IMG/VR virus record: IMGVR_UViG_3300019776_000583
Coordinates: 20,162 to 84,161 of that record
Length of the DNA: 64,000 bases
Origin: a virus
Taxonomy: Duplodnaviria > Heunggongvirae > Uroviricota > Caudoviricetes
Strand: one strand, 5' to 3'
The position numbers and the translations under genes are program-made. Below the pieces are notes generated by a model. It was not told the origin of the DNA. It searched no databases and saw nothing but the letters and a program-made list of their open reading frames with translations. This document shows, in pieces, positions 3,869 to 59,996 of this stretch; the stretch's first letter is position 1, and the number at the start of each line of letters is the position of its first letter.

Positions 3869-5941
3869 ATGCTGAAAAAAGTTGGAAACGACGTCGCAGA
3901 AGCCGTTGTTCTTGTCGACCCGATAACTGGCGAGGCCTACGCCGCCAGTGGTGGTGGTGGCGGTGGTGGCAGTGGCGGCAGCGTCACCCTGCCTGGCGTG
4001 AGCGGAACCACCGCTCAGGCGGTTCAAGGCATCTCCGGCGGCGTGGCCATGCCTGTCAGCAACACCAGCCTGGCCAACATTGACATCGACCTTGGCACCC
4101 CTTCGGATGCTGCTGCAACCACCGACGCCGGAGCGTTCTCTCTGATTTCGCTGGTCAAGCGGGCGCTGCAGAACTGGACGTCTCTCCTGGCTCGGCTGCC
4201 GTCTGCGTTGACGGCCGTCCCCAGCCCGGACCAGGCCGCCCAGCCGATGCGGATCGTGGGCCAAAACGCCACCGGCGCTGGCTTCAGCGCGGTTGGCGCA
4301 TCGGTGATCGATAGCTTCTTCGTCCAGACGCCCGTCGTCACGGGCGGCGTCACGTACAACCAGGCAGCTGGCTCACTCAACGTGGTGGCAGGAACCACGG
4401 TCAACGCTGAGTTTCTGGCTCGCTCGGTGTCAGCGTTCAGGGGCTCTCTGCGCCAGAGATTCTCGCTCGTGGCGTCGCAGCGAATCGTCAACAACAACTT
4501 TGCAGTTTTGCTGGCCGACCTGATCGGCGAGTCCTTGAGTTTCACCATCAACTCGACGACATCCGTCACGGTCAACGTGCCGGGGAACACCTTCGATTCC
4601 ACGATGGTTGGTCAGTTCGTCAACATCGGCGGCATCGTCAGTGCGGCGGCCGCCGTGCCGGGCCGCTACGCGGTCGCCAGCGTAGTGACTGGGGTGAGCA
4701 TCACCTTCACCGTGGCTGGCTACCCTGCGACTGGCACTGGCACTTGCACGCTGTTCGGCCGCAACTACGTGCGACACCTCGTCACCGGCGCCACAGCCAC
4801 CGCGCTCAACGTCGACGCCCAGCGCAACGGATGGGCGACTGGTGATACCGCCGCCGTCATCAACACCACCGCCGCCCCCGGCACGGTTGTGCAGACTGAG
4901 TTGACCGGACGCGAGGTGTTCTTCTCCGACTCGCTGAGGGCTTCCAGTACCGCGCCCAGCTTCGTCACCAGGGCATCGAGATACGAAAACATCCCCGATC
5001 AGTCGATCGACCTGTACGTGTTCCTCTGGAACTTCAACGGCACAGTCGCGCCGGCGAGCTCGAGCACGTTCTCTATGGCCCACCTATCGGTCGAGAACTT
5101 TGCGAACCTGCCGGTTTACATCCAGGGGGCGCGATCGATGGGCCAGCAGAATGCACTTCCGGTGCAGCTGCAGGCGGGGGCCAACAGCATCGGCTCGATT
5201 GGCACCGTGACCACGGTCACCGGCGTCACGACCGTCTCAACGGTCACGACGGTTGGGTCGGTGACGGCAGCCAACCTGAACATTCCCGGCATCATCGCTG
5301 ACGTGGCCTCGGCCGCACTGACCGCATCTGCCACAACGGCCGCGTTCACGCCGACGTTTGGGCCGAGCTACGAGGTCAACATTCCCGTCACCGCAGTCAC
5401 GGGAACCCTACCCACCCTGGATGTCGGCATCGAGGAGTCGGACGACAGCGGGACCAACTGGTTCAGGGTGTACGACTTCCCGCGCATCACGGCGACAGGC
5501 ATCTACCGCAGCCCGAAGCTGGCACTGACCGGCAACCGCGTGCGCTACGTGCAGACGGTCGGCGGCACGACGCCGTCATTTACCCGGGCCGTGAACCGCC
5601 TGCAGTCCAGCGACCGCGGGCAGAACATCCGGCAGTTGGTTGACCGCACCGTGGCTCTGGCAACGCTGACCAGCGCCACGCCGGCGCTCAACGTCCAGAA
5701 CAGCACCAACCTGCAACTTCAGGTCAACATCGGAGCCGCCAGCACGGCCCCGTCTCTTCAGATCCAGGGTTCTGACGATGGCGGGGCAAGCTGGTACAGC
5801 ATCGGAGCTCCGTTGGCTGCCGTCGCCTCCAGCACCGTTTCGCTGACCGTCAACAACGTGCAGGCCCAGCAGTCCCGGGCCATTGTCTCGACTGCTGGCA
5901 CTGGCGTGACTTCTGGCTATGTTCTGTTGAAAGCATTCTGA
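3869..5941 (+). CDS. Virion structural protein, fibre-like (Gly/Thr/Ser/Val-rich, 690 aa)
   Basis: GAAGGA Shine-Dalgarno. Poly-Gly (GGGGGGGSGG) near the N-terminus. VTTVTGVTTVSTVTTVG repeat. Composition typical of tail or head fibres. Confidence 0.6.
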   Translation: MLKKVGNDVAEAVVLVDPITGEAYAASGGGGGGGSGGSVTLPGVSGTTAQAVQGISGGVAMPVSNTSLANIDIDLGTPSDAAATTDAGAFSLISLVKRALQNWTSLLARLPSALTAVPSPDQAAQPMRIVGQNATGAGFSAVGASVIDSFFVQTPVVTGGVTYNQAAGSLNVVAGTTVNAEFLARSVSAFRGSLRQRFSLVASQRIVNNNFAVLLADLIGESLSFTINSTTSVTVNVPGNTFDSTMVGQFVNIGGIVSAAAAVPGRYAVASVVTGVSITFTVAGYPATGTGTCTLFGRNYVRHLVTGATATALNVDAQRNGWATGDTAAVINTTAAPGTVVQTELTGREVFFSDSLRASSTAPSFVTRASRYENIPDQSIDLYVFLWNFNGTVAPASSSTFSMAHLSVENFANLPVYIQGARSMGQQNALPVQLQAGANSIGSIGTVTTVTGVTTVSTVTTVGSVTAANLNIPGIIADVASAALTASATTAAFTPTFGPSYEVNIPVTAVTGTLPTLDVGIEESDDSGTNWFRVYDFPRITATGIYRSPKLALTGNRVRYVQTVGGTTPSFTRAVNRLQSSDRGQNIRQLVDRTVALATLTSATPALNVQNSTNLQLQVNIGAASTAPSLQIQGSDDGGASWYSIGAPLAAVASSTVSLTVNNVQAQQSRAIVSTAGTGVTSGYVLLKAF

Positions 5942-5973
5942 ACGTGAGACGCAAGGGCCACCAGGAGTAGACC

Positions 5974-6288
5974 ATGTCACGCAACTACGACGCATCACAA
6001 GTAGGCAGGCCCTACGTCAGGGTCCCTTCGATCCAGATCAAGTACCCGTCCCCGCTGCATGCCACTGTCACCTTTCAGGAGGTGGAGGCTGTCGTTCTGC
6101 AGGATGGCTCGGTGCGCCAGATCGGCGATCTGGGCGAGCGCAGCTTCAGCGTCGACCCCGGTGACATGGACGATGTCCTCCAGCTCCGAGACCCGACGAC
6201 GGGGAACGTCATCCCTGGCGCCACGATGACGGTCCAGCAGCTGATGCTCGGAATGCTTGCGATCATCCGCCGCGAGCAGACGAAGTGA
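5974..6288 (+). CDS. Hypothetical protein (104 aa)
   Basis: AGGAG Shine-Dalgarno. GC3 bias. Confidence 0.6.
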   Translation: MSRNYDASQVGRPYVRVPSIQIKYPSPLHATVTFQEVEAVVLQDGSVRQIGDLGERSFSVDPGDMDDVLQLRDPTTGNVIPGATMTVQQLMLGMLAIIRREQTK

Positions 6289-37508: not shown

Positions 37509-38015
37509 ATGCCAATCCAGCCCAAAAGCGACATTTGCCAGGAGCGACTGCATCAGCTGTTCGTGTACGACGAACAGACGGGCATTTTCACGCGCCGCAT
37601 CAGCCGGCGCTGCGCAAAGGCGGGCTCCGTTGCCGGGTGTCGATCCACCGACGGGTACTGGCAAATCTCAATCAGCGGCTCCGTCTATAGAGCCCATCGC
37701 CTTGCGTGGCTGTATGCGCACGGAACCTGGCCCACAAATCAGATCGATCACATTGACGGCAACCGGCTGAACAACAGGATCACCAACCTTAGGGATGTGC
37801 CTCAATCCACCAACATGCTGAACATTCACGCCCCGGGGTCCGCCAACACGACAGGCTTTCGTGGCGTGTTCTTTGATCGCAATAGCGGCACATTTTCGTA
37901 CTCTGTCAGAGTCAAAGGTCGAGACGGGGTCGGTAGCGGGTTCAAGGATGCGATGACAGCGCATCAGGGGTATTTGCTCAGGAAAGAAATTATGATCGGA
38001 GAAGCGCGCCAATGA
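37509..38015 (+). CDS. HNH homing endonuclease with an AP2-type DNA-binding domain
   Basis: HRLAWLYAHGTWPTNQIDHIDGNRLNNRITNLR is an HNH signature. GFRGVFFDRNSGTFSYSV is AP2-like. Confidence 0.8.
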   Translation: MPIQPKSDICQERLHQLFVYDEQTGIFTRRISRRCAKAGSVAGCRSTDGYWQISISGSVYRAHRLAWLYAHGTWPTNQIDHIDGNRLNNRITNLRDVPQSTNMLNIHAPGSANTTGFRGVFFDRNSGTFSYSVRVKGRDGVGSGFKDAMTAHQGYLLRKEIMIGEARQ

Positions 38016-41000
38016 AGTCTTGCAGCTACACCTTCCGCGGCCCCGACGGCGAGAACGTCGTTCTTCGTGGCATGGCCGCCATCAAGGCATTCCTGGCCAG
38101 CGGAGGGCTGGAGTACCTGCGGGCGCCGGAGGTGAGCAGGACCACTGAGCGCGACGTCACGCAGACGCCCGAGTTCAAGCGCTGGTTCGGCGACAGCGTC
38201 ATGACCGTTGACGGCAAGCCCGGCGGCAAGCCGCTGACGCTGTACCACGGCGGCTTCCCCCTTGTTGATCAGCCGCCCGGCAAGGGCATCCCCAAGGCCA
38301 GCACGCGGGGTGCTCTGGGCTACGGCTTCTACATGACCCCCGATGAAGGTCGCGCCGAGATGTACGCCGGCGAGTCCGGCGGCTGGGGTCGCCCCGACGG
38401 CAAGGTCACAGCGCTCTATGCCCGCCTGCTGAACCCACTGGTGATCGAGCACGACGACAAGCAAGACCCGGTCATCACGGGCCTGGTTGCCGCCGGCATG
38501 CCGCGCGACAAGGCAATCAAGAAGGTCGAGAAGGCCAACGAGGAGCACGGCTGGACCGGCAAGGAGCTGATGTCTGCCGCCACCAAGGCCAGCCACGACG
38601 GCGTCGTGCTCAAGCGCGGCGGCAAGATCTCCGAGGTCGTCACCTACCAGCCGACCCAGGTCAAGAGCGCCATCGGCAACGACGGCTCGTTCTCGTGGAG
38701 CCCCGACATCCGCAAGAGCGCCGAGCGCCACTGGTACAGCCAGCTCGAGCGCGCGATTGAAGGCGTCCCCGCGCGCCTGGACAACCAGTCGGCCGTGCAG
38801 TGGTCGCAATGGCTCAAGGCCAACGCCAGCAAGCTCGGCGTCAAGCAAGACGAGGTGACCTGGTCCGGCATCGAGGACTGGCTCAAGCTCAAGGGCAAGG
38901 AGAAGGTCTCGAAGGCGGAGATCGGCGAGTACCTGGCCGAGGGCGGCGTGCGGGTTGAGGAGACGGTTCTGGGTGACGGCGATCGCTGGACCAGAATGGA
39001 TACCGGGGAGAGCACTCAAAACGAGGATGTGGCAAGGCAATGGGCTTCGTCCGGCGTTGACTTCAACTACGACAAGTCCAGCACCAAATACAGCCAATAC
39101 ACCCTCCCCGGCGGCACGAACTACCGCGAGGTGCTGCTGACGCTGCCGGAGCCCAAGCTCGCAGAGATCGAGCCATGGACCGTCGGACGCATGCGCTCCA
39201 GCAAGGACAAGCTGCTGGACATGGGTTTCTCGCAGTTGGCGATAGACACGGCCATTGCAAAGGCGACCGAGACCGGAGGCGTGGAGTCCGCGCTGCGCGC
39301 CATGGACGCCAAGGTTGCGTCCGGCACGGCCAGCCAGGGCCAGCGAGAGGCGGCTCAGCTGCTGCGCGGCATGGCGTCCGGTGAGCGCAAGAACAAGGAG
39401 GCGCGCCTGGTTGCACTGGCAAAGGCGGGCTACAAGTCAGGCCACTGGGACCAGAAGAACGTGCTCGCGCACATTCGCCTCAACGACCGCGTCGATGCCG
39501 ACGGCAAGCGCGTGCTGTTCGTCGAGGAGCTGCAGAGCGACTTCGCGCAAGACGCTCGCAAGAAAGGCATTCAGTCCAGCTACAAGCTGGAGGACGTGCA
39601 ACTCACCGATGGTCCGCTTCCGGCGACCTTCTACTACATCAAGACACCCGACAACGTCTTCCAGATCCTGAAGTCGCAGCACTCCAGCGAGCAGGCTGCG
39701 CGCGAGTACATCGTCCGCGAGAAGAAGATCAATAGCGGCGGCGTTCCGAGCGCCCCCTTCATCGACGACACCACCAAGTGGCTCAACCTTGCCATGAAGC
39801 GAGTCATCAAGCTGGCGGTGGACGATGGCTACGATGCCGTCGCGTTTGTGAACGGCGAGCAGAGTGCTGATCGGTATGACCTGAGCAAGCAAATCAGCAA
39901 GGTGCTTTGGAATGAAGACACAAAGAGGCTGACGGCCTACGACAAGAACACATCCGAGCGCCGCACCAGTGGCCGCGCAGTCATTGATGAGAGCGATGTG
40001 ACTGCAGATCGACTTGAAGATTATGTTGGCAAGGATGTTGCCAAGAAGCTGCTGGAAATGACGCCGGACGAGGATGGCGACAGATCGCTTTCCGGCCTCG
40101 ACCTCAAGGTCGGCGGCGAAGGCATGAAGGCCTTCTACGACAAGATCGTGCCGCAGGCGGCCGGCGGCCTGGTGAAGAAGATGGGCGGGGAGGGGATGAC
40201 GAAGGTGACTCTGCCCAAGATGCCGGGCGGCCGGGCTGTGGTGCGCAATGGAGTCGAGATCAAGACGATTGGCGACATTCAACAGCCCGGCTTCCTCGTC
40301 ACCGACGAGATGCGCGACAAGGCCTCCGGCGGCATGCCGCTGTTCAGCCGCGAGCGACAGACCGACACAGAAGCCTTCAAGAATTGGTTCGGCGACAGCA
40401 AGGTCGTCGATGCCGGGGGCAAGCCGCTGGTTGTGTACCACGGCACGGCAGAGGACTTTGCTGAGTTTGACCCGACGCGCGCCGGCCGCAACTACTTCAG
40501 CTCCGGCGCCCGCCGCGGCATGTTCTTCACCAGCAACCCCGGCACCGCAAGCGTGTACGCCGAGAAGCCGTCTGGCGCGTACCTGAACCCGTCAGATCCG
40601 GAGCGGGCCGACTTCGGCCGCGGCACAGCCACGATCATGCCTGTGTACCTGTCGCTGCAGAATCCGCTGGTCATCAGCACGAAGAAGTCGCCCGACAAGT
40701 TCTTCGACGGGAGGTGGGAGGACATCTTTTCGCGTGTCGAAGCCCGCGGTCACGACGGCGCGATCATTCGCGGAGGTGCGGAGTTCAAGCGCGATCTGTA
40801 TGTGGCCTTGGAGCCCACCCAGATCAAGTCCGCAATCGGCAACACTGGCGCCTTTGCGACTGACAATCCGGACATTACCAAGTCTACCGAGCGCGCCGCG
40901 ATGGGCCTCAACGAGAGCCGCCTCGACCGCGTCATGAACGAGTGGGGCTACACCAGCGGCAAGTCTCGAGCCGCGCTGACCTACATCGATCCGAGCGACT

Positions 41001-44000
41001 TCCTCGCTGCGACCACCGAGTCTCCTGAGGCGATAGAGCGCATCCGCCGCGAGGCTGGTGAACTCGACATGGGCAACCTCACTTCGGAGTCGCAGACCCC
41101 GTTCCTGAAGGTTGAGAAGCGCTCCAACGACAAGGAGTGGCGCATCGTTGGCCACGAGGGTCGGCACCGCATGGCCGCCCTGCAGAAGGCCGGCTACAAC
41201 CAAGTACCGATCGTGCTGTACCAGTACGGCGCGACTGACGACTTCGGCGCCAAGATCTCTGGCCAGAGGCTGATGGGCCAAGACTTCGAGTACGTCGGTC
41301 CCGGATCTCGCGGGCAAGACATTGTCCTGGGCGAAGCCACCTCAATCACATTCGACAACAAGGCGAAGATTGCCGATGAGTTCGGTCGCGGCGACGCGCA
41401 GTTCTCTCGCGAGCGCACCGACACGCCCGAGTTCAAGCGCTGGTTCGGTGGCAGCGTTCTCACCGACAACGACAGCCGCCCGATGGTTATGTACCACCAG
41501 ACCAAGAGCGACTTCTCTGAATTCAAGCCCGGAGGCAACGACGCCACGCTCAGCGGGCCGGCGATATGGGTTCGGCCGGACCCATCAGTCATGGCCTCTG
41601 GCCACAACACCGGCACGCGCCGCAAGGGCCAGTTCCAACCCGGAACGCGCGAGATTCCTCTGTATGTGCGCCTGACAAACGCACTCGGCAGCAACAGCTC
41701 CAACTGGAGAGAGGTATACGGCCAGTTCAAGAGCAAGGGCAATAGCCCCTGGCTGATGGATCAGGCGTTCATCGATGAACTGAAGTCGAAGGGCTACGAC
41801 GGGGTGATGCACCTCAGCAATGACGGCGAGATGGAGGAAGTGGCCGTCTTCGACGCCAACCAGGTCAAGAGCGTCTTCAACGACGGTAGCTTCGACGAGA
41901 CCGACTCCAACATCCTCTCCAGCGCCGCGCGCAACTGGCAGACGCCAGGCGCCTCCAAGTTCGATGATGCCGTCCAGAAGTTCCAGGACAAGAACGTCGA
42001 CCTCCTCCGCGTGCAGCAGGCCCTGAAAGAGGCTGGCGTCGAGATCGCCAACGATCGCGACGCATACCTGAAGGAGGAGCTCTTCCACGGCCGTGCTGCC
42101 AAGCGCACCGAGGACTTCACCAAGAAGGAGCTCGAGCCCTTGACGAAGGCCATGGCTGACCGCGGCCTGACCATCGAGGAGCTCGACGAGTACCTGCACG
42201 CTCGCCACGCAAAGGAGGCGAACGACCTCGTAGCCGAGCGCAACCCAGACAGCCAGGACCTCCAGGACGGCGGGTCCGGCATGAAGTCCAAGGATGCCCA
42301 GGACTACTTGGCTGGCCTGCCATCCGACAAGCGAGAGCACCTGGCTGCCGTCGCCGCACAGGTCGACAAGATGCTGGCCAGGACGCGCCAGCTCATGGTC
42401 GACTACGAGCTCGAGGGCGCAGACACGGTCAAGGGCTGGGGCGAGATGTTCCAGCACTACGTGCCGCTGATGCGCGAGGACGATGGCGACGCGCCGTCCG
42501 GCCTTGGTATGGGCCAGGGCTTCAGCATCAAGGGCCGCGAGGTCAAAAGCCGCACCGGCTCGACGAAGAAGGTCGTCGACATCCTGGCCAACATCGCGCT
42601 GCAGCGCGAGCGCGTGATCGTGCGCGGCGAGAAGAACCGCGTCGGCCAGGCGCTGGTGAACTTGGCTCGCGAGAACGAGAACAAGGACTTCTGGACCGTC
42701 GACCTGACGCCCACGACGCCGACCTACGACCCCAAGAAGGGCGTCGTGGTGCAGCGGCCGGACCCGATGTTCAAGATGCGACCCAACGTGCTGGTGGCCA
42801 AGTTCAAGGAGGCCGACGGCAGCGTCAAGGAGCACGCTGTCATCTTCGACGAGAAGGACTCCCGCGCCGTGCGCGCCGCCGCCTCGCTGAAGAACCTCGA
42901 GGCTGCCCGCATGGAGGGCTTCCTGGGTGGCGCAGCGGCGGTCACCCGCTACTTCAGCGCGATCGTCACCCAGTACAACCCGGTCTTCGGCGTCATCAAC
43001 TTCATGCGCGACTTCCAGGCCGTGATGCTCAACCTGAAGAGCACCCCGCTGGATGGTAAGCAGAAGCAGATCGCCGCCGACTCGATGCGCGCGGTGAAGC
43101 AGATCTACTCGAACCTGCGCAGCGGCAAGGACACCGGCGACCTGCAGAAGCTCTTCGACGAGTTCCGCGACGCCGGCGGCCAGACTGGCTTCCGCCAGCT
43201 CTACGCCGACAGCGCCGACCGCGCCGACGCCATCCGTGAGGCCATCAACCCTGACGCCTGGACCGACACCAAGCTGGGCAAGATCTTCACCGCCAACGGC
43301 GTCTTGAAGGTCCCCATGGCCAAGGCTATGCGCGCGTCGAAGGGCGTCTTCCAATGGCTCACCGACTACAACGACACTCTCGAGAATGCCACCCGCCTGG
43401 CAGTCTACAAGGCCGGCAAGGAGCAGTTCCTGTCGGAGGGCCTGGGAGAGACTGAGGCCCGCGAGAAGGCCGCCAGCATCGCCAAGAACATCAGCGCCAA
43501 CTTCAACCGCAAGGGCGAGCTGGGCCAGCAGATCGGCGCTCTCTACGCCTTCTTCAACGCCAGCGCGCAGGGCACAGCCCGCCTGGGCCAGCTGCTCTTC
43601 GACATGGAGCCCGGCAAGCCCAAGACAATCCGCCTGTCGCGCGTCGGCAAGCGCATCGTGACCGGCGGCGTGCTGCTGGGCGTGGCGCAGGCGCTGGCGC
43701 TGTCTGCCGCCGGCTTCAGCGACGATGATCCGCCGGAGTTCGTTCGCGAGCGGTCGATCGTGATCCCGACCGGCGGCAAGAGCTACATCTCGATCCCCAT
43801 GCCGCTGGGCCTGCACGTGCTACCCAACCTGGGCCGCGTGACGACCGAGTGGGCCATGGGTGGCTTCGACAAGACGCCGCAGCGCGCCGTAGCCATGGTT
43901 GGCCTGCTGGCCGAGGCCTTTGTGCCGACCGGATCCAGCGGCCTTTCGATGCAGACGCTGGCGCCTACCGCGGTGGACCCACTGGTGGCGCTGACCGAGA

Positions 44001-44629
44001 ACAAGGACTGGCAGGGCCGGCCGATCGCCAAGGAGAGCATGAACCCGGCGATCCCGGGCCATGCGCTGGTGAAGGACACAGCGACAGCCTGGTCGCGCGT
44101 GATGGCCGAGGCGATCAACTACGCCACCGGCGGCAACCATTACCTGCGCGGTGCGGTGAGCCCGACCCCGGACCAGCTCGACTACCTGATCTCCGCCCTG
44201 GGCGGCGGGGTGGCCAACGAGATCTCCAAGGCCCAACAGACCGGCTCTAGCCTGGCCACCGGCGAGTCATTGCCGACCTACAAGATCCCGCTGGTGGGCC
44301 GCCTGATCGGCAACGCCGCCAGCCAGCAGAGCGAGGGCACGGCCTTCTACTCCGCGTCGCGCAAGCTGAACGAGCTGGAGACGGAGATCAAGGGCCTGCA
44401 GAAGGACGGTAGGAGCCAGGAGGCGGCCGCACTGCGCGCCTCGCGGCCGGACGCCTACCTCATGGCCCAGGTCAACCGGGCCGAGAGAGACATCTCGAAG
44501 CTGCGCAAGGAGAAGAGCTCGCTGATTGAGTCTGGCGCACCGCGCGAACAGGTTCGCGCAGTGGAGGAGAAGATCACCGCGCGCATGGCGGCCTTCAACC
44601 GGGCCTTCGACCAGATGCAGCCTCGGTAG
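38012..44629 (+). CDS. Giant polyvalent virion protein (2205 aa) carrying three tandem copies of the FKxWFGDS...YHG[TG] domain and a hydrophobic C-terminal region
   Basis: ATGA overlap with the HNH gene. Uninterrupted 6.6-kb ORF. Three paralogous roughly 200-aa modules, each beginning TPEFKRWFGDS / EAFKNWFGDS / TPEFKRWFGGS and ending QVKSAIGN / QIKSAIGN / QVKSVFND. Confidence 0.85.
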   Translation: MKSCSYTFRGPDGENVVLRGMAAIKAFLASGGLEYLRAPEVSRTTERDVTQTPEFKRWFGDSVMTVDGKPGGKPLTLYHGGFPLVDQPPGKGIPKASTRGALGYGFYMTPDEGRAEMYAGESGGWGRPDGKVTALYARLLNPLVIEHDDKQDPVITGLVAAGMPRDKAIKKVEKANEEHGWTGKELMSAATKASHDGVVLKRGGKISEVVTYQPTQVKSAIGNDGSFSWSPDIRKSAERHWYSQLERAIEGVPARLDNQSAVQWSQWLKANASKLGVKQDEVTWSGIEDWLKLKGKEKVSKAEIGEYLAEGGVRVEETVLGDGDRWTRMDTGESTQNEDVARQWASSGVDFNYDKSSTKYSQYTLPGGTNYREVLLTLPEPKLAEIEPWTVGRMRSSKDKLLDMGFSQLAIDTAIAKATETGGVESALRAMDAKVASGTASQGQREAAQLLRGMASGERKNKEARLVALAKAGYKSGHWDQKNVLAHIRLNDRVDADGKRVLFVEELQSDFAQDARKKGIQSSYKLEDVQLTDGPLPATFYYIKTPDNVFQILKSQHSSEQAAREYIVREKKINSGGVPSAPFIDDTTKWLNLAMKRVIKLAVDDGYDAVAFVNGEQSADRYDLSKQISKVLWNEDTKRLTAYDKNTSERRTSGRAVIDESDVTADRLEDYVGKDVAKKLLEMTPDEDGDRSLSGLDLKVGGEGMKAFYDKIVPQAAGGLVKKMGGEGMTKVTLPKMPGGRAVVRNGVEIKTIGDIQQPGFLVTDEMRDKASGGMPLFSRERQTDTEAFKNWFGDSKVVDAGGKPLVVYHGTAEDFAEFDPTRAGRNYFSSGARRGMFFTSNPGTASVYAEKPSGAYLNPSDPERADFGRGTATIMPVYLSLQNPLVISTKKSPDKFFDGRWEDIFSRVEARGHDGAIIRGGAEFKRDLYVALEPTQIKSAIGNTGAFATDNPDITKSTERAAMGLNESRLDRVMNEWGYTSGKSRAALTYIDPSDFLAATTESPEAIERIRREAGELDMGNLTSESQTPFLKVEKRSNDKEWRIVGHEGRHRMAALQKAGYNQVPIVLYQYGATDDFGAKISGQRLMGQDFEYVGPGSRGQDIVLGEATSITFDNKAKIADEFGRGDAQFSRERTDTPEFKRWFGGSVLTDNDSRPMVMYHQTKSDFSEFKPGGNDATLSGPAIWVRPDPSVMASGHNTGTRRKGQFQPGTREIPLYVRLTNALGSNSSNWREVYGQFKSKGNSPWLMDQAFIDELKSKGYDGVMHLSNDGEMEEVAVFDANQVKSVFNDGSFDETDSNILSSAARNWQTPGASKFDDAVQKFQDKNVDLLRVQQALKEAGVEIANDRDAYLKEELFHGRAAKRTEDFTKKELEPLTKAMADRGLTIEELDEYLHARHAKEANDLVAERNPDSQDLQDGGSGMKSKDAQDYLAGLPSDKREHLAAVAAQVDKMLARTRQLMVDYELEGADTVKGWGEMFQHYVPLMREDDGDAPSGLGMGQGFSIKGREVKSRTGSTKKVVDILANIALQRERVIVRGEKNRVGQALVNLARENENKDFWTVDLTPTTPTYDPKKGVVVQRPDPMFKMRPNVLVAKFKEADGSVKEHAVIFDEKDSRAVRAAASLKNLEAARMEGFLGGAAAVTRYFSAIVTQYNPVFGVINFMRDFQAVMLNLKSTPLDGKQKQIAADSMRAVKQIYSNLRSGKDTGDLQKLFDEFRDAGGQTGFRQLYADSADRADAIREAINPDAWTDTKLGKIFTANGVLKVPMAKAMRASKGVFQWLTDYNDTLENATRLAVYKAGKEQFLSEGLGETEAREKAASIAKNISANFNRKGELGQQIGALYAFFNASAQGTARLGQLLFDMEPGKPKTIRLSRVGKRIVTGGVLLGVAQALALSAAGFSDDDPPEFVRERSIVIPTGGKSYISIPMPLGLHVLPNLGRVTTEWAMGGFDKTPQRAVAMVGLLAEAFVPTGSSGLSMQTLAPTAVDPLVALTENKDWQGRPIAKESMNPAIPGHALVKDTATAWSRVMAEAINYATGGNHYLRGAVSPTPDQLDYLISALGGGVANEISKAQQTGSSLATGESLPTYKIPLVGRLIGNAASQQSEGTAFYSASRKLNELETEIKGLQKDGRSQEAAALRASRPDAYLMAQVNRAERDISKLRKEKSSLIESGAPREQVRAVEEKITARMAAFNRAFDQMQPR

Positions 44630-53676: not shown

Positions 53677-54351
53677 TTAGACCAGCGTGCGCTTTTTCTC
53701 ATGGAATCTCTTCAAAGACTCCGAGCGCATGGCGCGCTCCTCGGGTGACTGAACCCTCCCAGCTCGGGCGGCGGACATCTTCGCCCTGGTTTCGGCCGAT
53801 AAGACTCGACCCTTAGCCGCCGACGCGATCTTTGCGCGCACCTCTGGCAGCGCCATCGCGGCCCTCAGCGCCGGAAGGTACGAGGCAACTTCTTCGGGGG
53901 TCTTCTTGCACCCCTTCCTTGCGGCTGACATGCGAGACTTCTGCTGCTCCGACTTTGGGCGGCCCCGCATGTATTCACTGATCTTTGCCGCGTGCTCCGG
54001 CCTCAGTGGCACTCCTTTCTTGGCCCTCGAAATCCGGGCCTTTGCTTCGTCGGTGTGCCTCCGCCCCACGGCCCCCTCGCCGCCGTCCGTGAGGTTGCAC
54101 AACGGAGCGCCCAAGCCCCTAAAGCAGCGGACCAGAAACTTCTCGTGCTCGCAGGCCTCTTCGTTGGTTCGCCAGAGCGCGAGCACCTCGACCGCGACAC
54201 CGTGAGCCAGCGACACACTGACCCACCACCTGTTGCGGTGGGACCGCTGCCACGGCCTGCTTTTGACGCCCTTCCCGATGTAGAAGACGGCACCGTCTGA
54301 TGCCCGACGGTGCAGGTACGTGCAGAACATGCCGTCTGGTATGCGCTTCAT
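53677..54351 (-). CDS. GIY-YIG homing-endonuclease-like protein with C-terminal NUMOD3 repeats
   Basis: VFYIGKG...R...H...E is a GIY-YIG core. Repeated HTDEAKARISRAKKG / EQQKSRMSAARKG / ETRAKMSAARAG are NUMOD3-like motifs. TGATG coupling with the upstream gene. Confidence 0.65.
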   Translation of the reverse strand: MKRIPDGMFCTYLHRRASDGAVFYIGKGVKSRPWQRSHRNRWWVSVSLAHGVAVEVLALWRTNEEACEHEKFLVRCFRGLGAPLCNLTDGGEGAVGRRHTDEAKARISRAKKGVPLRPEHAAKISEYMRGRPKSEQQKSRMSAARKGCKKTPEEVASYLPALRAAMALPEVRAKIASAAKGRVLSAETRAKMSAARAGRVQSPEERAMRSESLKRFHEKKRTLV

Positions 54352-55742
54352 CAGGCGGGCTGCATCAGGCGCGCGATCTCCTCGAAAGCGTCGTAGGTGC
54401 CGAGCCACTCGGCGGCGATCGCGGGCTCGACGTCGAAGGCGCGGGCCACGGCTGCGGTCAGGCGCTCATCGTCGGGGCGCTTGGCTGCGGGCTTGGGCAG
54501 GGCGGCCGCGCGCGCAGCTTCGGCCTGGCGCTCCACCTCGAAGGCGTCGGTCTGCTCGGTGACCGGGGGCTTGACCTCCTCGGTCGGCACGTAGTGCACG
54601 ATCGTCGCGCCATTGGTGCCGGGCGACTCAGTGCGCTGCAGCTGCACTGGCGCGGCGGAGGCAAACTCAACCACGGGGGTCTCGGCCAGCAGCTTGCGCT
54701 CGAGCTCGGCATCCTCGGCCGCCTGGCGGGCTGCAGTCTCCGCGGCGCGCGAGGCAGCCTGCTGGCGCTCGAACTGAGCACGCTGCTCATCCAGCTGGCG
54801 CTGCTGCTCAGCGATGCGCTCCTGGGCCTGGCGCTCGGCCTCAGCCCGCGCAGCCTCCGCGGCGCGCTCGGCAGCGGCCGCGGCTTCGGCGCGCTGGCGC
54901 TCCTCGGCCTGGATGCGCTCAGACAGGATGCGGCGCTGCTCCCATTCGCGCTCGATGGCAGCCCGGCGCTCTTCCTCAGCCCGGCGGGCGGCTTCCTGCT
55001 GGGCGGCGAGCTCAGCGCGCTGGCGCTCCAGCTCGGCGCGCTCGGCGGCCAGGCTCGCGGCCTCGGCGCGCTGGCGCTCAGCCCGCTCCTCGGAGGCTTT
55101 GGCAGCACTCATCATCGCCTCGAGCTTCGTGCGAACCACGTCAGCCGCGGCCTCAGCCTCGCCTTGCAGCTCTGCGAAGAACTCCTTGTCGATCATCGAC
55201 ATTGCCAGGGCAACGGCAGCAGTCTCGATCTCCGAGGACGTCTTTCCGATGCAGGAGGCGGGCAGGCTATAGATCTCAGCGATGCGCTCGCGGATGGCCT
55301 TGATGCGAGCGGCTTCGGCGTCGTCGCGGGCCTTCTTCTCGGCGGCGCGGCGGTCTTCGTCGGCCTTGATCGCCTCGTCGAGCGGGCGCTCGAGCAGCTG
55401 CACGCGGGCCGCGAATCCGTCGCGCAGCTCGCGCGCCTTCTTCTGGGCGGCCAGCAGCGGCTGGTTCCAGGTCTTGTAGACCTCGTCGGCGGTGGTGCGC
55501 ACGGAGACCAGCTCCTTGCGCGCCTTGCGAGCGGCGTCGTTGCCCTTGGTTGTCGTCAGGTCGTAGACGACGTCCTTGTGACGCGCTTCGATCTGCGCGA
55601 GCGTTTGCTCGATAGGGTCGAACACCGCGAGGCCAGCGTTCGGTGCCTGGCCGGCCGCCTGCTCATTGGCGGCCGGCCCGACGACCTCCCACGGAGGGCC
55701 GGCGTCGGCGCCGGGCTCGTGGAAGCTGGGGTCGTTACTCAT
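54351..55742 (-). CDS. Coiled-coil protein with an ERQRAE-type low-complexity core (463 aa)
   Basis: AGGAG Shine-Dalgarno 7 nt before the ATG. The antisense + ORF 54300..55757 looks like GC-rich junk. Confidence 0.6.
   Translation of the reverse strand: MSNDPSFHEPGADAGPPWEVVGPAANEQAAGQAPNAGLAVFDPIEQTLAQIEARHKDVVYDLTTTKGNDAARKARKELVSVRTTADEVYKTWNQPLLAAQKKARELRDGFAARVQLLERPLDEAIKADEDRRAAEKKARDDAEAARIKAIRERIAEIYSLPASCIGKTSSEIETAAVALAMSMIDKEFFAELQGEAEAAADVVRTKLEAMMSAAKASEERAERQRAEAASLAAERAELERQRAELAAQQEAARRAEEERRAAIEREWEQRRILSERIQAEERQRAEAAAAAERAAEAARAEAERQAQERIAEQQRQLDEQRAQFERQQAASRAAETAARQAAEDAELERKLLAETPVVEFASAAPVQLQRTESPGTNGATIVHYVPTEEVKPPVTEQTDAFEVERQAEAARAAALPKPAAKRPDDERLTAAVARAFDVEPAIAAEWLGTYDAFEEIARLMQPA
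54647..55037 (-). repeat. Low-complexity Glu/Arg/Ala/Gln coiled-coil repeat region
   Basis: ERAERQRAEAASLAAERAELERQRAELAAQQEAARRAEEERR... Confidence 0.6.
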
Positions 55743-55811: not shown

Positions 55812-56315
55812 CTATTTGTCGATCTGCTCGCGCGCGATCTCCACGAGGCGGGGGTCGGCCCGCGTCATCGCGTCGAGCAGCAGGCGCTTCTCTTCCAAGT
55901 AGACCCGAGCGAACTTCGGATCGTGCTCGACGATGCTCGAGGTGTTGCTGATCATGTCGGCGACCTTGATCGTCTGCACCCAGCCAGGGGCTCCAGACAA
56001 GCGCGACCGGCTGGCAGCCTTGCGAGCGGCGCGGCTACCAAGCTCAAGGTCGGACAGCAGCATGACGCTGCCAGCAACAACATCGCCGAACGCCCCGGCC
56101 AGTTGATCACGAGTCACGCCCTGGTCTTCAACGCTGTCGTGGAGCCAGGCGGTCGCTAGGTATACGTCGAGATCTACCAGGCCGGCCGGCGCAGCGGTGG
56201 CGGCAATGCCAGCCACCTCCGCCAAGTGGTCCGAGTAGGGGTTGTTCGTGTACTTTCGCCGCTGGTCACGATGAACCAATCGAGCAAAGACCATTGCTTT
56301 GATCGAAAGGTTCAC
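55812..56315 (-). CDS. SpoT/RelA-type HD-domain hydrolase (small alarmone hydrolase-like)
   Basis: HRDQRRKYTNNPYSDHLAEVAGI...AWLHDSVEDQ matches the Rel/SpoT HD signature (H...RxxGEPY..H...HD..ED). GGGAGA Shine-Dalgarno and GTG start. Confidence 0.7.
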   Translation of the reverse strand: MNLSIKAMVFARLVHRDQRRKYTNNPYSDHLAEVAGIAATAAPAGLVDLDVYLATAWLHDSVEDQGVTRDQLAGAFGDVVAGSVMLLSDLELGSRAARKAASRSRLSGAPGWVQTIKVADMISNTSSIVEHDPKFARVYLEEKRLLLDAMTRADPRLVEIAREQIDK

Positions 56316-56622: not shown

Positions 56623-56892
56623 TCACTTCTTCTTCGTGTACATCTCTGGCTCGGTCTTGCGCCATCCGCGGTTCTTGCTGGCGTCCTGGACCTTGGTGTT
56701 GCCGGGCGTGTTCTTGCCGCCCTTGTCGAGAGCCTTCACGTGAGCGACGTCCTTTCCATCGCCCTTGGTGACTTTGCCGTCGGCGATCGCCTCGCGACGG
56801 GCGGCGTTGTTGAGGACGCGCTTCTGAATGTTCGCTGGCTCGGCGTTGTAGGCCTTTTGGTAGGCGAGCTTCGCGGGGGTGGACGTCGGCAT
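56623..56892 (-). CDS. Small basic Lys-rich protein (89 aa)
   Basis: Clean GC3 periodicity from this ATG. The upstream extension of the listed ORF is not coding-like. Confidence 0.5.
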   Translation of the reverse strand: MPTSTPAKLAYQKAYNAEPANIQKRVLNNAARREAIADGKVTKGDGKDVAHVKALDKGGKNTPGNTKVQDASKNRGWRKTEPEMYTKKK

Positions 56893-56911
56893 GTGGTCTT
56901 TCTGGGATGGG

Positions 56912-57112
56912 TTACCAGTAGTAGATGTGCGGCTTGCTGGCCAGCGGCCACTCCACGCGATCGACGTCGTCGAGGTCCGTGGTCCTGGTGGCAAGGCGCT
57001 CGAGCCTGCGGGCCTGCGCCCGAGAGGGTCGCTCGAAGTAGATGTGATGGTGCCAGCCCGGGCTCTTCGAGGGGCTGAACTGGCGGTGATGATGGTGTCG
57101 GGTACGCGACAT
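56912..57112 (-). CDS. Small His-rich hypothetical protein (66 aa; RHHHHRQF...GWHHH)
   Basis: ORF with GC3 bias. Weak Shine-Dalgarno. Confidence 0.3.
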   Translation of the reverse strand: MSRTRHHHHRQFSPSKSPGWHHHIYFERPSRAQARRLERLATRTTDLDDVDRVEWPLASKPHIYYW

Positions 57113-57149
57113 GAATTGCTCCGGCGGTGGTCACAATTTCATGTTGATC

Positions 57150-59250
57150 TCCTGTTGGATTGAAGAGGGCGTCTGGATTCGAACCAGCGCTCCAGTGTCG
57201 CAGGGTGGCGCGACGGCCGGAGCTGAGCATTCCAAGAGGGGCTCGCTGACTCCCCGCCCGCGGGCTGCACCGAGGCCCGCACACCACCCTCAGATCAGCG
57301 GGCAGGTCGCTACTCCTGCTCCTGGCTCGTTATCGTTACGCCAGGCCCCGCACGAGTCGAACGTGCTTTAGGTTTCCCACTCCACGCACGCGTGTTGTCT
57401 GAACCTGTTGCCCAACCTCAGGCGTGTCTGCATTCCACGCTGCCGCTGATCTGAAGGTCGAGGGCGCAGGGAGCTGGCTCCGAGCCCTGAGGAGAGGTCT
57501 TCGTCGGCCCCCGTTGTGATGGGGGGCGTCCTGGCACGAGTTTCGCCAACGAGTGGCTACTGTCGACCGACTTCACTGAGCACCGCACTTACTGTGCGCC
57601 CTCGGGCCTGCATCCGCACATTACGTCTCCGGGGTAACGCCGGAGGTTGCGCATTGCTGCTGGCCCTTTCCGAGTGGGATGCAGGCCCGAAGGGGCAGCT
57701 TGCCTGCCAGCACGAGCTTTAAGCCCTCGGGGCCCTACGGTTTCGCCCGTCCGCCTTCTGCGCCAGGGTTTTCAATCAGCCATCTGGAGGGCCTTGCGCC
57801 TTCTTTGGGCCGCCTTGCGGCGACTCCGGGTCAAGGCGCATGACCCAGCAGACATTCACCCGGTTTGATTCCCAGTACGGTCTGCAAGCGCTGTCGGAAT
57901 TTTTCGAGGGTGGCGCATCGAGGTAGCCGATGCGTTTTTTCAGCCGGACCTGATGTTACGGTTCCCGGCACTTGATGCGTACACCCTCTGATCATCGGCC
58001 TGGGCGCAACTCCAGGTTGAACTCCGTAGACGGTCCTCCCTTGCTCCGAGCCGCGCTCCAGCGCCGCCTGCCCAGAACCCACCTTTCTTCCCACCTGAGT
58101 CGAACAGGCGCTTACTGGCTGTGTGCCCCGCGCTTAGAAATTGGGGCGCCCGATGATCAGAAAGTCCCCGTCTCTCCGGGGTGTCTCGCGCTATTTCCTG
58201 TGCCACGGTCCCGCGTTGACCGCTCGTTTCGTTCGAGCTTCGACTGCACAACCTCTACACCGCTCGTTACGTTTCGCGCGGCCACGTGAAGGGCCTTGTA
58301 CTTCGGACACCCTCAGATCATGGCCCGGGGCTTGATACCCGGTCAGCAACACACTGCCAGTTGCCTGCGGCGGGATGCACGTCTGCAGAGCCCACTCCAC
58401 TTCCTGTCCGCGCCTTCGCAGCACCTTGTACGGTTCCTGGCGTTGAGCGGGGCTAGCCGCGCGCTTCGGGGGTATGCAAGCAGTGACCCATGCCGTCCGG
58501 TGTTTCATGTTTCTGCACCGCGCCTAGCGTGTCCTTCCACGCCGGCCATGATCTGAAAGTCCCCGCTACTCTCCCGGGGTGGTCGCGCAGATCACTTTGC
58601 ACTGTTGCCTGACCCAGGGGTTAGTGCACTACCCTGGCGCCTCATGCTGGCTGACTGCGTGTTGCCGCTGCTCCTGTCTGACGATTGCTCGTCGAAATAG
58701 TTCCCTGTCGTCGGCATCGATTCAACGCCTTGCGGCTCCACGCGCCTTGCACTCTCTCTCGGCAGGGAGCCGAGGTCATCCACATTTTTGTTGCGCCCGG
58801 CTACGGGCCGCTTCACTTCATGCAGACTGTGGCCAGGTCTGCATTAGCTCGGAGCTACCGAGCGGGTCTCGTTGATTGCGGCCGTTGACAGGCCAGTCGG
58901 CCCAGTCCATCGCCGACGGCACGGCGAGCGTCTTCACCATCAGGGCTGGCGGCGCCCGACTTCTACCAACGCCCCGTCCGAGCAGTTTTGCGGCATCCAT
59001 CGGTCGCTTGCGCGGCCGGCCGTTGGGTCACATGCTCCATGTGGCGGGGCACCGCCAGCCCTGATAGTGCGGCACTCTGTCCGCCCGTCAAGCTATCTGC
59101 CGTGGGTCCGGCCGCTTTCGCCGGTGGCAAGGGTCCTAGCCTCTGAGCTGGTCAGGCCCGTTCAGTGCAAGCTAAGGGGCTGAACCTCCCCAGGAGGCGC
59201 GCCTTGCGGCGCCTACGCGCTTGCTGCGTCTCGGGACGGAATATACAACA
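57150..59250. ncRNA. Candidate large structured non-coding RNA locus: 2.1 kb ORF-free, with at least three paralogous modules closed by co-varying helices (strand unresolved, minus favoured by context)
   Basis: No ORF longer than 105 aa on any frame despite high GC, and no coding GC3 periodicity. Three module-closing helices: 57286-57300 with 57442-57456, 57986-57998 with 58149-58161, and 58311-58324 with 58543-58556. Each pairs ccYtcWGATCAnnGG with ccnnTGATCWGAAag and shows compensatory changes (cagcgg/ccgctg, catcgg/ccgatg, catggcc/ggccatg). Conserved AGTCGAA-loop hairpins with different stems (57349-57365 gcacg/cgtgc; 58093-58107 cctg/cagg). Duplicated GAAAGTCCCCG...CCGGGGTG segments at 58153 and 58549. 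Confidence 0.4.
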
Positions 59251-59258
59251 AAGAGGTG

Positions 59259-59501
59259 TCATGGCAACATTTTTTTTGCCAATGTTGCGATCGCATGCAG
59301 GCCCAGGCGCGGGTCGTCGCACAGGGATCCTGCCCCAATGAATCCGTAGTCTAGCCCGCCGTAGTGCACGGATGCGACGACGCCAACGATCGATCCACTC
59401 CGGGCCTCATCCAGAATCGTCTCCAACTGCAAGACGGTGTTTGGGTCAACTCGCAGTCTTTTTAGCTCTAGTGGCGGTGGGCTTGGTGGCTTTTCCGACA
59501 T
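59259..59501 (-). CDS. Small hypothetical protein (80 aa) downstream of the repressor
   Basis: ORF overlaps the repressor 3' end by 56 nt. Moderate coding bias. A hairpin overlaps its stop. Confidence 0.4.
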   Translation of the reverse strand: MSEKPPSPPPLELKRLRVDPNTVLQLETILDEARSGSIVGVVASVHYGGLDYGFIGAGSLCDDPRLGLHAIATLAKKMLP

Positions 59502-59916
59502 GATCTTTCGTGCCTCTCTTTATCTCAAGAAACGGTGGGATTGATTTTGTTGCTTCTCGCGCGTTGATTGTGTGAGCGCCCCTTTCAAGCGCGGCCAGGT
59601 GCATCTTGGCGAACTCTCCAATCAAGTTCTTTGCGTCGTACGGCAGCCTGCAAATCACAAGCAGCAGGTCGATGTCTCTTTGATCGATCAGTGCATTGAT
59701 CGTGCTGTCGTCCCCCGAGTGCCTCGCTCCCTCGCTCCAGTCGAGTTGGAACTTCAGGATCTCCTCCAGCTGCCTGGCTAAGCGCTTGCTTGGGTTGCTG
59801 CGCCCGCTCTCCCAGTGCCTCACAGCCTGGTCAGTGACGCCCATCTTGTCGGACAGTTCTGTAACAGAGATCCCAAGCTGGTCTCTCCGAGCCCGGATCT
59901 GATCCTTGATCTTCAT
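59446..59916 (-). CDS. XRE-family HTH transcriptional repressor (CI-like)
   Basis: N-terminal HTH_XRE (LGISVTELSDKMGVTDQAVRHWESGRSNPS). Divergent from a + strand gene, with a palindromic operator in the intergenic region. Confidence 0.75.
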   Translation of the reverse strand: MKIKDQIRARRDQLGISVTELSDKMGVTDQAVRHWESGRSNPSKRLARQLEEILKFQLDWSEGARHSGDDSTINALIDQRDIDLLLVICRLPYDAKNLIGEFAKMHLAALERGAHTINAREATKSIPPFLEIKRGTKDHVGKATKPTATRAKKTAS

Positions 59917-59940: not shown

Positions 59941-59967
59941 TTGTCAACACTCCGTTCTGTTGGCAAG
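59941..59967. promoter_or_regulatory. Palindromic operator TTGTCAACA-N9-TGTTGGCAA in the repressor / cro-like divergent region
   Basis: Inverted repeat read directly. The half-site GCCAACAGAA / TTCTGTTGGC recurs in other early intergenic regions. Confidence 0.5.
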
Positions 59968-59996
59968 CAAAACTTTTGTTGCGTACAATGGGTCGC
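59962..59996 (+). promoter_or_regulatory. Sigma70-like early rightward promoter (TTGGCA-N18-TACAAT) overlapping the operator
   Basis: Near-consensus -35 and -10 hexamers. AGGAGT Shine-Dalgarno and ATG at 60024 follow downstream. Confidence 0.5.

Follow-up and report, generated by a model that had tools for sequence, protein, structure and literature searches.

The large structured RNAs GOLLD and ROOL are encoded by phages and prophages, often near transfer RNA (tRNA) islands, and tRNAs sometimes lie within GOLLD itself (PMC12286853). Y RNAs of the YrlA type, which are encoded next to RtcB, combine a long stem with a T-arm and are possible mimics of tRNA (PMC4201824). Another precedent is provided by rrn operons, in which leader-trailer helices are combined with boxB and boxA elements (PMC10250234). 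The analysis presented here concerns a gene-free locus at positions 57150-59250 of a 64,000-nucleotide (nt) stretch of phage DNA (Caudoviricetes; positions 20,162 to 84,161 of IMG/VR record IMGVR_UViG_3300019776_000583). This stretch, hereafter called the window, comes from a metagenomic contig of 86 kb (ENA ERZ28660116). The locus carries an array of RNA modules that, by sequence comparison, form a conserved and previously undescribed family with a clear link to tRNA islands. Phage tRNA islands repeatedly hold large structured RNAs such as GOLLD and ROOL, and the locus represents a distinct and anatomically tractable case, in which small cassettes with leader-trailer helices like those of ribosomal RNA (rRNA), T-loop hairpins, and chained alternative pairing are placed at the start of an early operon.

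Anatomy of the array and evidence for conserved RNA structure

When read on the minus strand, the locus contains at least five modules, which follow one another from a promoter-like element in the order M0, M3, M2, M1b, and M1 and give way to a degenerate tRNA-like domain (Table 1). An initial annotation, made from the sequence alone, had recognized three homologous units. All three are real, but two further modules at 58935-59069 and 57599-57693 had been missed. Two 13-mers recur exactly in the array and are found nowhere else in the 64-kb window: CACCCTCWGATCA at 57285, 57982, and 58308, and TGATCWGAARGTC at 57447, 58154, and 58549. The long-range closing helices were likewise correctly recognized, but their length had been given as 12-14 base pairs (bp). 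The five helices in the window extend to 16-23 bp on the minus strand, because the C.A mismatches seen in their outer part on the plus strand become U.G wobble pairs on the minus strand. The helix of M3 can be drawn with 17 bp, or with 22 bp if one mismatch is allowed, and that of M1b with 17 bp (21 bp with one mismatch). In the whole family, including related phages (designated below by L and a number), there are 23 distinct long helices of 15-30 bp. The base of these helices is conserved as 5'-(A)C-Y-N-U-C... / ...G-A-N'-G-G-U(G)-3', or 5'-ACYUUC... / ...GARGGU-3' with U.G wobbles, and the inner arm positions differ among the copies and are complementary within each one (cagcgg/ccgctg, catcgg/ccgatg, and catggcc/ggccatg), just as the compensatory pattern had been described.

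When the sequence was checked again, the other elements listed in the initial annotation were also found in their places. These include the hairpin GAAAGTCCCCG...CCGGGGTG, which is common to 58166-58181 and 58561-58579 and is thus shared by two modules, and the hairpins with AGTCGAA loops at 57350-57366 and 58093-58109. On the minus strand the latter are T-loop hairpins with the loop UUCGACU on a 5-bp stem ending in G-C, namely GCACG-UUCGACU-CGUGC in M1 and GCCUG-UUCGACU-CAGGU in M2. Such a T-arm hairpin is present in inserts of both the M2 type and the M1 type. The inserts are 37-230 nt long and can be sorted into types; the M3 type occurs in L144 and L389 as a minimal form of 92 nt. A short hairpin rich in G+C, such as CCCCG-GAGAGA-CGGGG in M2, stands before every 5' arm, and its stem covaries (GCCCG/CGGGC, CCUCG/CGAGG, and GCGG/CCGC).

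Several measures indicate that these structures are maintained. Folds of single sequences gave z scores of -3.15 for M1 and about -3.1 for M2. Alignments of M2-type and M3-type modules were prepared with MAFFT without structural input, from four to five sequences per module type. In the M3-type consensus, 12 of 63 pairs are changed on both sides, compared with 3.5 +/- 1.4 in shuffled alignments, and 13 of the 55 M2-type pairs are changed in this way, compared with 5.3 +/- 1.7; neither value was reached in any of 500 shuffles. Controls in which the pairing partner was slid gave only zero to two double-sided changes. The stem of the T-arm also covaries among M2 orthologues, from CCUG/CAGG to CCAG/CUGG. 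Positions 2-15 of the long-helix arms show two to five pair types each and are at least 89% paired (at least 96% at all positions but one), although these percentages are partly circular because the long helices were chosen for being paired. Overall, the covariation support for the module folds is good but not conclusive, and the comparison of homologs confirms at the sequence level the earlier proposal that selection acts on RNA secondary structure.

A further layer of pairing connects the modules to one another. Bridge helices of 7-10 bp join each module to the next and draw on the GAGGGUG that ends the long helix before them. The last nucleotides of a 3' arm, together with a few beyond it, can pair with a stretch whose end lies 0-2 nt ahead of the 5' arm of the following long helix. 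Compensatory changes in the bridges are evident between loci (GAGGGUG/CACCCUC, CGAGGGCGC/GCGCCCUCG, UGAGGGUGGA/UCCACCCUCA, AGAGUCGCA/UGCGACUCU, and GAAGGUCGCA/UGCGACCUUC), and further covarying bridge pairs are GAGGGUGGA/UCCACCCUC, GAGAGUCGCA/UGCGACUCU, and GAGGGCGC/GCGCCCUC. The bridge-closed segment at 57906-57988 folds with a z score of -4.39, and none of 200 shuffled sequences folds as well. About 6 nt are shared between a bridge helix and the wobble-rich base of the long helix before it, and the two can therefore form only as alternatives. The structured modules of the initial annotation are upheld, but neither the bridge helices nor the connection to tRNAs had been seen there.

Table 1. 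Positions of the promoter, array components, and adjoining genes in the window, listed in the direction of the minus strand, with aberrant tRNA-like RNAs of related phages in the last line
Feature	Position	Strand	Description	Counterparts in relatives
Sigma-70-like promoter	59240..59267	minus	TTGCCA-16-TATATT; motif scan, 10 of 12 matches; directly after orf80 stop codon, points into array	
Leader block A	59085..59239	minus	Always the first block; many short hairpins with GCAA- or GAAA-type loops	75-83% identity to first block of L139, L398, L138, L389
Module M0	58935..59084	minus	Hairpin GCGGACAGAGUGCCGC (59069-59084), then 23-bp closing helix CACUAUCAGGGCUGGCGGUGCCC / GGGCGCCGCCAGCCCUGAUGGUG; 89-nt insert	Same hairpin precedes first module in L144, L389, L398
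Inter-module blocks	58580..58934	minus	Local hairpins	78-91% identity to L389, L138, in different order
Module M3	58309..58579	minus	5' hairpin CCCCG-GGAGAGUAG-CGGGG (58561-58579); helix ACUUUCAGAUCAUGGCC / GGCCAUGAUCUGAGGGU; multi-helix 218-nt insert	Orthologues in L138, L139, L014, L398
Inter-module segment	58179..58314	minus	Closable by GGGUGUC / GACACCC	
Module M2	57983..58181	minus	5' hairpin CCCCG-GAGAGA-CGGGG (58166-58181); 16-bp helix ACUUUCUGAUCAUCGG / CCGAUGAUCAGAGGGU	Orthologues in L139, L141, L027
Bridge domain	57906..57988	minus	Closed by GAGGGUG / CACCCUC (7 bp); two hairpins inside; overlaps M2 helix base by 6 nt	92% identity to L027
Conserved block	57694..57905	minus	CCA-ending tRNA-like gene that precedes the block in relatives is absent from window	Directly after that gene in relatives; 85.5% identity to L398 over 449 nt
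Module M1b	57599..57693	minus	Closing helix CCUUCGGGCCUGCAUCC / GGAUGCAGGCCCGAGGG; 61-nt insert	Orthologues with compensatory arm changes in L139, L138, L141, L398
Bridge domain	57459..57604	minus	Closed by CGAGGGCGC / GCGCCCUCG (9 bp); 3' strand ends directly at M1 5' arm	
Module M1	57286..57458	minus	16-bp helix ACCUUCAGAUCAGCGG / CCGCUGAUCUGAGGGU	
Terminal degenerate tRNA-like domain	57161..57291	minus	GAGGGUG can pair with CGCCCUC (57165-57171), directly 3' of T-arm	
Shine-Dalgarno sequence and mini-ORF	57131..57152	minus	Strong Shine-Dalgarno sequence (GGAG); three codons, AUG AAA UUG UGA; 18 nt before orf66 start	MKL-stop in L398, MRL-stop in L139
orf66	56912..57112	minus	First gene after array; Arg/His-rich N-terminus MSRTRHHHHRQ	
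HD_4 protein	55812..56315	minus	Closest to small alarmone hydrolases / MESH1; same operon as array, near orf66	
Aberrant tRNA-like RNAs	L398 3289-3379; L027 6124-6214 (minus); L139 5746-5833, 4863-4933; L138 5762-5832; L141 792-862			

Coding content and genomic setting

The initial annotation had described 2.1 kb without a credible open reading frame (ORF) and without codon-position bias in G+C content. Both statements hold, given that the longest ORF in 57150-59250 has only 105 amino acids (aa) and that the spread of G+C content among codon positions is 0.04-0.15, compared with 0.2-0.47 in the flanking genes. Some suspicion that the region derives from one or more decayed protein-coding genes might be raised by the ORFs of 189-333 aa that gene callers place on the opposite strand within several of the homologous arrays. 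However, these ORFs have flat G+C contents at the first, second, and third codon positions (about 0.62/0.60/0.65, compared with 0.76-0.88 at the third position of real operon genes), and none has a match in Pfam. The window region also has no codon-position bias of its own, and the substitutions among homologs are compensatory within helices. Gene decay, which the initial annotation had named as one finding that would speak against its proposal, is thus excluded by the flat codon-position composition and by the lack of Pfam matches in the ORFs of relatives, and we assign this explanation almost no probability.

The gene order around the gap is HTH_3 repressor, orf80, gap, orf66, orf89, orf79, HD_4, a 463-aa protein, NUMOD3, ERF, YqaJ, SSB, RdgC, and a deoxynucleoside monophosphate (dNMP) kinase. 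This neighborhood constitutes the early-left arm of a temperate phage of the lambdoid type.

Strand and promoter

The strand of the RNA, as read from sequence features, is the minus strand, which is directed leftward. Among the 23 distinct long helices there are 28 G.U pairs and 6 A.C mismatches on this sense strand. In 14 kb of nonredundant arrays, all 14 copies of the T-loop motif GUUCGAHUC lie on the sense strand and none on the antisense strand, and three of its four copies in the 64-kb window fall in the array region. All tRNA genes in the homologous arrays are co-oriented with the arrays. Wobble and mismatch counts in well-defined helices were adopted as the strand test because looser criteria, under which every helix of 14 bp or more was counted, did not separate the strands (68 sense and 94 antisense, with about 24 in shuffles).

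A TATATT element on the minus strand had been noted initially as promoter-like, and the motif scan confirms a sigma-70-like promoter there (Table 1). Three promoter-like sites were found in the region, compared with 0.5 in shuffles. In every relative inspected, a promoter of the same layout is present at the same place; when read by eye after orf80, the sequences are TTGCCC-16-TATATT in L139, TTGCCG-16-TATAGT in L014 and L027, and TATAGT in L398. Between the promoter and orf66, a scan of the minus strand revealed no terminator-like site other than a weak hairpin followed by ACUUUC, and none separates the array from orf66. Together, these features suggest that the array would be transcribed leftward from its own promoter just past the repressor operon, where the early-left operon begins.

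The end of orf80 holds an inverted repeat, GCAACAT-N11-ATGTTGC (window 59258-59290), which overlaps the promoter of the array at its -35 hexamer. It resembles the sequences TTGGCAA...TGTTGC and CAACA-N8-TGTTG of the intergenic region between the repressor and cro (59945-59985). All of these repeats are candidate operators, in which case the array promoter would be controlled by the repressor in the manner of lambda PL.

Homologous arrays in related phages

Homologous arrays are present in about eight related metagenomic phages. Pattern scans of IMG/VR with three conserved motifs yielded only two relatives, L014 and L027, and contigs carrying orf66 or orf80 (L138, L139-L147, L148, and L389-L402) all carry homologous arrays. 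Nothing similar to the region was found in INPHARED (50,697 GenBank phage records). A scan of genomes with GGGGACTTTCWGATCA gave only chance matches among those listed, none with a partner arm, and the matches listed in a metagenome scan with both arms came overwhelmingly from a single coding gene of a bacterium common in the human gut. A distant phage, L404, whose repressor is 41% identical, carries long-helix modules at the same position; in INPHARED, its array finds matches through its tRNAs only.

Blocks of 150-450 nt within the arrays are 75-91% identical between phages, and their order and number differ. For example, the block order is A-F-D-C-M3-B-...-E in the window and A-M3min-B-C-D-E-F in L389, and L144 lacks 946 nt that are present in L389, with one boundary of the deletion inside an arm. 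Genes for tRNA-like RNAs are present or absent among relatives at precise junctions, and total array size ranges from about 0.9 to 2.1 kb. Between phages whose flanking repressor genes are about 72% identical in DNA sequence, the array blocks reach 80-91% identity and are at least as conserved as that gene.

The initial annotation had left a choice between an array of small RNAs and one large ornate RNA. The permuted order and variable number of the blocks argue against one fixed large RNA and favor independent cassettes such as those of tRNA clusters. A single multidomain molecule or homo-oligomer similar to GOLLD or ROOL would agree with the dense structure along the whole region, with the bridge helices that tie neighboring modules together, and with the phage or prophage origin and the frequent proximity to tRNA islands of those RNAs (PMC12286853). 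This explanation is nevertheless very unlikely, since block order, number, and content vary even among close relatives and since no match to GOLLD, ROOL, or any other Rfam family is seen even at an expectation value (E) of E <= 10. The first of the two original options is therefore preferred.

The same mobility of the blocks could be displayed by selfish DNA, either as palindromic repeats resembling miniature inverted-repeat transposable elements (MITEs) or as cassettes recombined through their arms in a permissive intergenic spot, and RNA structure would then be a by-product. Conserved inverted-repeat ends (the outer 6-12 nt) do surround variable interiors of 37-230 nt, units have been gained, lost, and permuted with at least one deletion boundary at an arm (L389 versus L144), and homing endonuclease genes (NUMOD3, HNH, and T5orf172) lie nearby. 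However, the inner arms covary and do not conform to one fixed transposase-binding sequence, and the interiors are themselves conserved and covarying. The two arms also differ consistently (CUUUC versus GAGGG) in such a way that G.U pairs form on one strand only (28 versus 6). Furthermore, no target-site duplications were seen when filled and empty sites were compared, and no copies exist elsewhere in the 64-kb window. The chance that the array is merely selfish DNA is therefore considered slim.

Links to tRNAs

In the arrays of relatives, real tRNAs and tRNA-like RNAs with a terminal CCA are interspersed among the modules. The genuine tRNAs are Gly-UCC and Arg-UCU, together with Gln, Met, and Cys in L404. 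L398 and L027 each encode an RNA that has acceptor, D, and T arms and ends in CCA, and its 5' acceptor strand, beginning with GGGUGUG or GGGUGCG, falls within the 3' arm of the module before it; the tRNA-like RNA of L027 ends with CGCACCC-ACCA-UCAAACAACAGGAG. By reading of these sequences, a long hairpin replaces the anticodon arm and is capped by UUCG in L398. It is unlikely that such aberrant RNAs (Table 1) serve in decoding, and they could instead be mimics or decoys. Anticodon loops of 6 or 8 nt are found in some of the aberrant tRNA-like RNAs of relatives. At 6449-7340 of L404, modules with another arm consensus (CCAUCAUGA.../...UCAUGAUGG) lie between tRNA-Gln, tRNA-Met, and tRNA-Cys, and the ACCA and trailer that terminate tRNA-Cys merge into an arm motif.

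No tRNA gene or transfer-messenger RNA (tmRNA) was detected by ARAGORN in the window, and the Rfam tRNA model (RF00005) has no match in 56800-59600 even at E <= 10. Structures with the hallmarks of a T-arm (a 5-bp stem ending in G53-C61 and a 7-nt loop UUCRANY) are nevertheless found on the minus strand at 57350-57366, 58093-58109, and 57172-57188. The last of these, GCUGG-UUCGAAU-CCAGA, belongs to the terminal domain, which ends with UUCA where relatives have ACCA and is the decayed counterpart of their tRNA-like RNAs. The long helices may descend from, or might still act as, trailer-leader pairings of successive tRNA-like units. The modules are under purifying selection even though no intact tRNA is detected, which points to a function of the modules themselves.

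Genes surrounding the array

The mini-ORF between the array and orf66 is conserved (Table 1) and may couple or gate the translation of orf66. Its Shine-Dalgarno region accounts for a weak match (18.1 bits) to the Rfam family Mu-gpT-DE. The orf66 product falls into four protein clusters among 5.8 billion proteins, and all of their genes lie directly 3' of homologous arrays. It has no Pfam or PHROG match, and its AlphaFold2 model is of too low confidence for use (mean predicted local distance difference test score, pLDDT, of 58.7). On the other side of the array, orf80 forms eight protein clusters among the same 5.8 billion proteins, all restricted to this phage lineage, and has no family match; it shares 56 nt with the 3' end of the repressor gene, read in a different frame (59446-59501). 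The 89-aa protein encoded by orf89 is very widespread among phages. Its other loci have no modules, and the 60 that were checked with ARAGORN hold one tRNA.

The gene for the HD_4 protein occupies a slot whose content changes among relatives. The same downstream position holds an RNA ligase (PF09414) gene in L138 (7638-8546), in L139 (6605-7513), and in L389, and it holds RtcB in L398 (E = 4.6e-129; 4940-6169). By its position and domain content, the slot looks like one for an exchangeable tRNA- or RNA-repair enzyme gene. Toxic alarmone synthetases pyrophosphorylate the 3' CCA ends of tRNAs, and enzymes of the small alarmone hydrolase (SAH) type, RNA ligases, and RtcB can reverse tRNA damage in the form of cleaved anticodon loops or 3'-pyrophosphorylated CCA ends.

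A conserved 463-aa protein (54351-55742, minus strand), whose gene reaches 73% G+C in one part, is encoded between this slot and the genes for recombination. It has no match in Pfam, the PDB, or INPHARED and matches only PHROG families of unknown function. Homing-endonuclease-type genes (NUMOD3, HNH, and T5orf172/MUG113) are scattered near the locus, at 53677-54408 (minus strand) in the window, at 432-1076 in L148, and at 3069-3539 in L389, and they fit a mosaic, cassette-like evolution of the operon. Elsewhere in the window, a very long ORF of 2205 aa is present at 38012-44629 on the plus strand.

Proposed role of the array

The explanation that is favored, with moderate confidence, is that the locus is a polycistronic array of the tRNA-island type, from which modules are released to act on tRNA biology together with the downstream repair enzyme. 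In such a scheme, a minus-strand transcript would start at the promoter after the repressor operon and read through the array of about 2.1 kb. Host enzymes would then cut the transcript, with RNase P acting at the GGGUG junctions and RNase III in the long helices, to yield stable small RNAs. These might serve as mimics or decoys of tRNA, or as helpers of the phage tRNA pool, and they would work beside the swappable tRNA-repair enzyme, which is an SAH-like HD protein here and Rnl or RtcB in relatives. The RNAs and the enzyme together could counter host defenses that damage tRNA.

A bolder form of this proposal treats the modules as a new class of phage RNAs with effects in trans on tRNA biology, perhaps as mimic decoys or as scaffolds that possibly self-assemble. 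Enzymes that process tRNA or double-stranded RNA would release them from a tRNA-island transcript, and together with the exchangeable repair enzyme they would make up an RNA-based counter-defense island against host systems that cleave or modify tRNA. This form is offered tentatively and must be regarded as doubtful. If the modules do prove to be tRNA mimics or decoys, they would reveal a new anti-defense strategy that operates at the level of RNA.

Several observations weigh against the tRNA-island explanation. Transcription, the processing sites, and the sizes of the products are all inferred. The window has no functional tRNA, so a role in tRNA supply cannot apply here, and whole modules do not resemble tRNA, given that neither the tRNA model nor the YrlA model of Rfam matches them even at E <= 10. 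With only four to five sequences per module type, the covariation is statistically suggestive. Moreover, the global minimum-free-energy fold is ambiguous, and a bridge helix cannot form at the same time as the base of the long helix that it overlaps. Finally, the helices of L404 contain more A.C mismatches (six) than G.U pairs (three), unlike those of the main family, which weakens the wobble-based strand argument in that phage, and L404 has no RNA-repair gene beside its array.

The main rival to the tRNA-island explanation is a cis-acting leader of the early-left operon, in which boxB-like hairpins would serve an N-like antiterminator, perhaps orf66, and would be combined with RNase III sites, whereas the inserts would have no function in trans. 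The task of such a leader would be to allow RNA polymerase to pass over a long untranslated stretch and to set the stability and translation of the downstream messenger RNA. This possibility gains from the location of the array, which follows the promoter and precedes the first early gene; apart from the weak hairpin and ACUUUC, that strand has nothing resembling a terminator there. The G+C-rich hairpin before each 5' arm has a covarying 5-bp stem and a purine-rich loop (GAGAGA, GAAAGA, or GGAGAGUAG), which we take to resemble boxB, and the first ORF, orf66, which we presume to be comparable to N, has an Arg/His-rich N-terminus and occurs only with these arrays. The conservation of the helix base across unrelated inserts is also what might be expected of a recognition site shared by a protein or an RNase. 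However, the inserts are conserved and covarying, and a pure spacer or processing signal needs neither property. Nor does a leader account for the T-loop hairpins, tRNAs, and tRNA-like genes within the arrays. A leader of 2.1 kb would be exceptionally long, nothing resembling boxA was seen within it, and the model of orf66 is uninformative (mean pLDDT 58.7). A leader without functions in trans is therefore judged unlikely. If the modules were nonetheless processing or antitermination devices, they would show how phage transcription and RNA maturation can proceed across kilobases of untranslated RNA.

Comparison with known systems

A search of the window and eight relatives against Rfam, at gathering thresholds and at E <= 10, produced only the tRNAs of the relatives and matches at chance level, and so the statement in the initial annotation that the region belongs to no known RNA family stands. 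Hammerhead and hairpin ribozymes, retrons, tmRNA, and the repeats of type III antitoxins were considered during sequence inspection, and none has an Rfam match; no reverse transcriptase was found among the neighboring ORFs in Pfam scans. Integron attC sites were also rejected. No RYYYAAC / GTTRRRY core sites are present (the arms are CACCCTCAGATCA / TGATCTGAAAGTC), and there is no integrase among the neighboring ORFs scanned.

The locus nevertheless shares some traits with repetitive DNA elements. As in MITEs, ERIC sequences, and Correia repeats, conserved imperfect inverted repeats flank variable interiors and are present or absent in the manner of cassettes, and as in attC sites the complementarity of the arms is better kept than their sequence. 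Unlike MITEs and attC sites, the modules are found at one locus only in the 64-kb window, with no transposase or integron integrase among the neighbors scanned, and their strand-specific wobbles, T-loops, promoter, and co-oriented tRNAs point to RNA.

Closer parallels exist with processed transcripts. Like the leader-trailer helices of rRNA, the long helices are formed by the flanks of independently folding RNAs within a polycistronic untranslated transcript that, in relatives, includes tRNAs, and the small hairpins before each 5' strand are placed as boxB is in rrn operons and lambda nut sites. The locus differs from rrn leaders in that no boxA is seen and the enclosed RNAs are small. Related sites are repeated along what would be one early transcript, as is the case for RNase III sites in the early region of T7 and in the lambda N leader. 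Many of the helices in the window are shorter (16-18 bp) than classic RNase III substrates and are only putative sites.

The resemblance to the YrlA and YrlB RNAs of the rsr-yrlBA-rtcBA operon lies in the tandem arrangement, in the long terminal stem that encloses a T-arm domain (M1 and M2), and in a neighboring RNA-repair enzyme (RtcB in L398). The modules have longer stems, a different conserved sequence, and no recognized equivalent of the D-arm, and they were rejected as members of YrlA (RF02553), whose model has no match in the window; its only match, at 24.6 bits compared with a gathering threshold of 69, falls on a tRNA dimer in L138. A regular expression for the motif GNCGAAN0-1G gave one internal chance match in 15 distinct modules and none in 5' arms. 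Ro60/TROVE domains, for which proximity within about 4 kb on the same strand serves as a criterion (PMC4201824), were absent from Pfam scans of 20 neighboring ORFs.

The tRNA islands of phages provide the comparison that bears most directly on the favored explanation. The window differs from the islands of other phages in having no detected intact tRNA gene, and it differs from GOLLD and ROOL in having no sequence or structure match to their Rfam models and in consisting of permuted cassettes of 90-270 nt, each with its own long helix, rather than one conserved fold of 600-800 nt. The adjoining tRNA island that is typical of GOLLD and ROOL is found in the relatives, and the window keeps only a degenerate tRNA-like domain. 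The T4 tRNA cluster contains the stable RNAs known as species 1 and 2, and as in that cluster homing endonuclease genes are present near the locus. Like the GOLLD and ROOL tRNA islands, the array is phage-encoded, untranslated, highly structured, and preceded by a predicted promoter, and in the related phages its modules are interleaved with tRNA genes.

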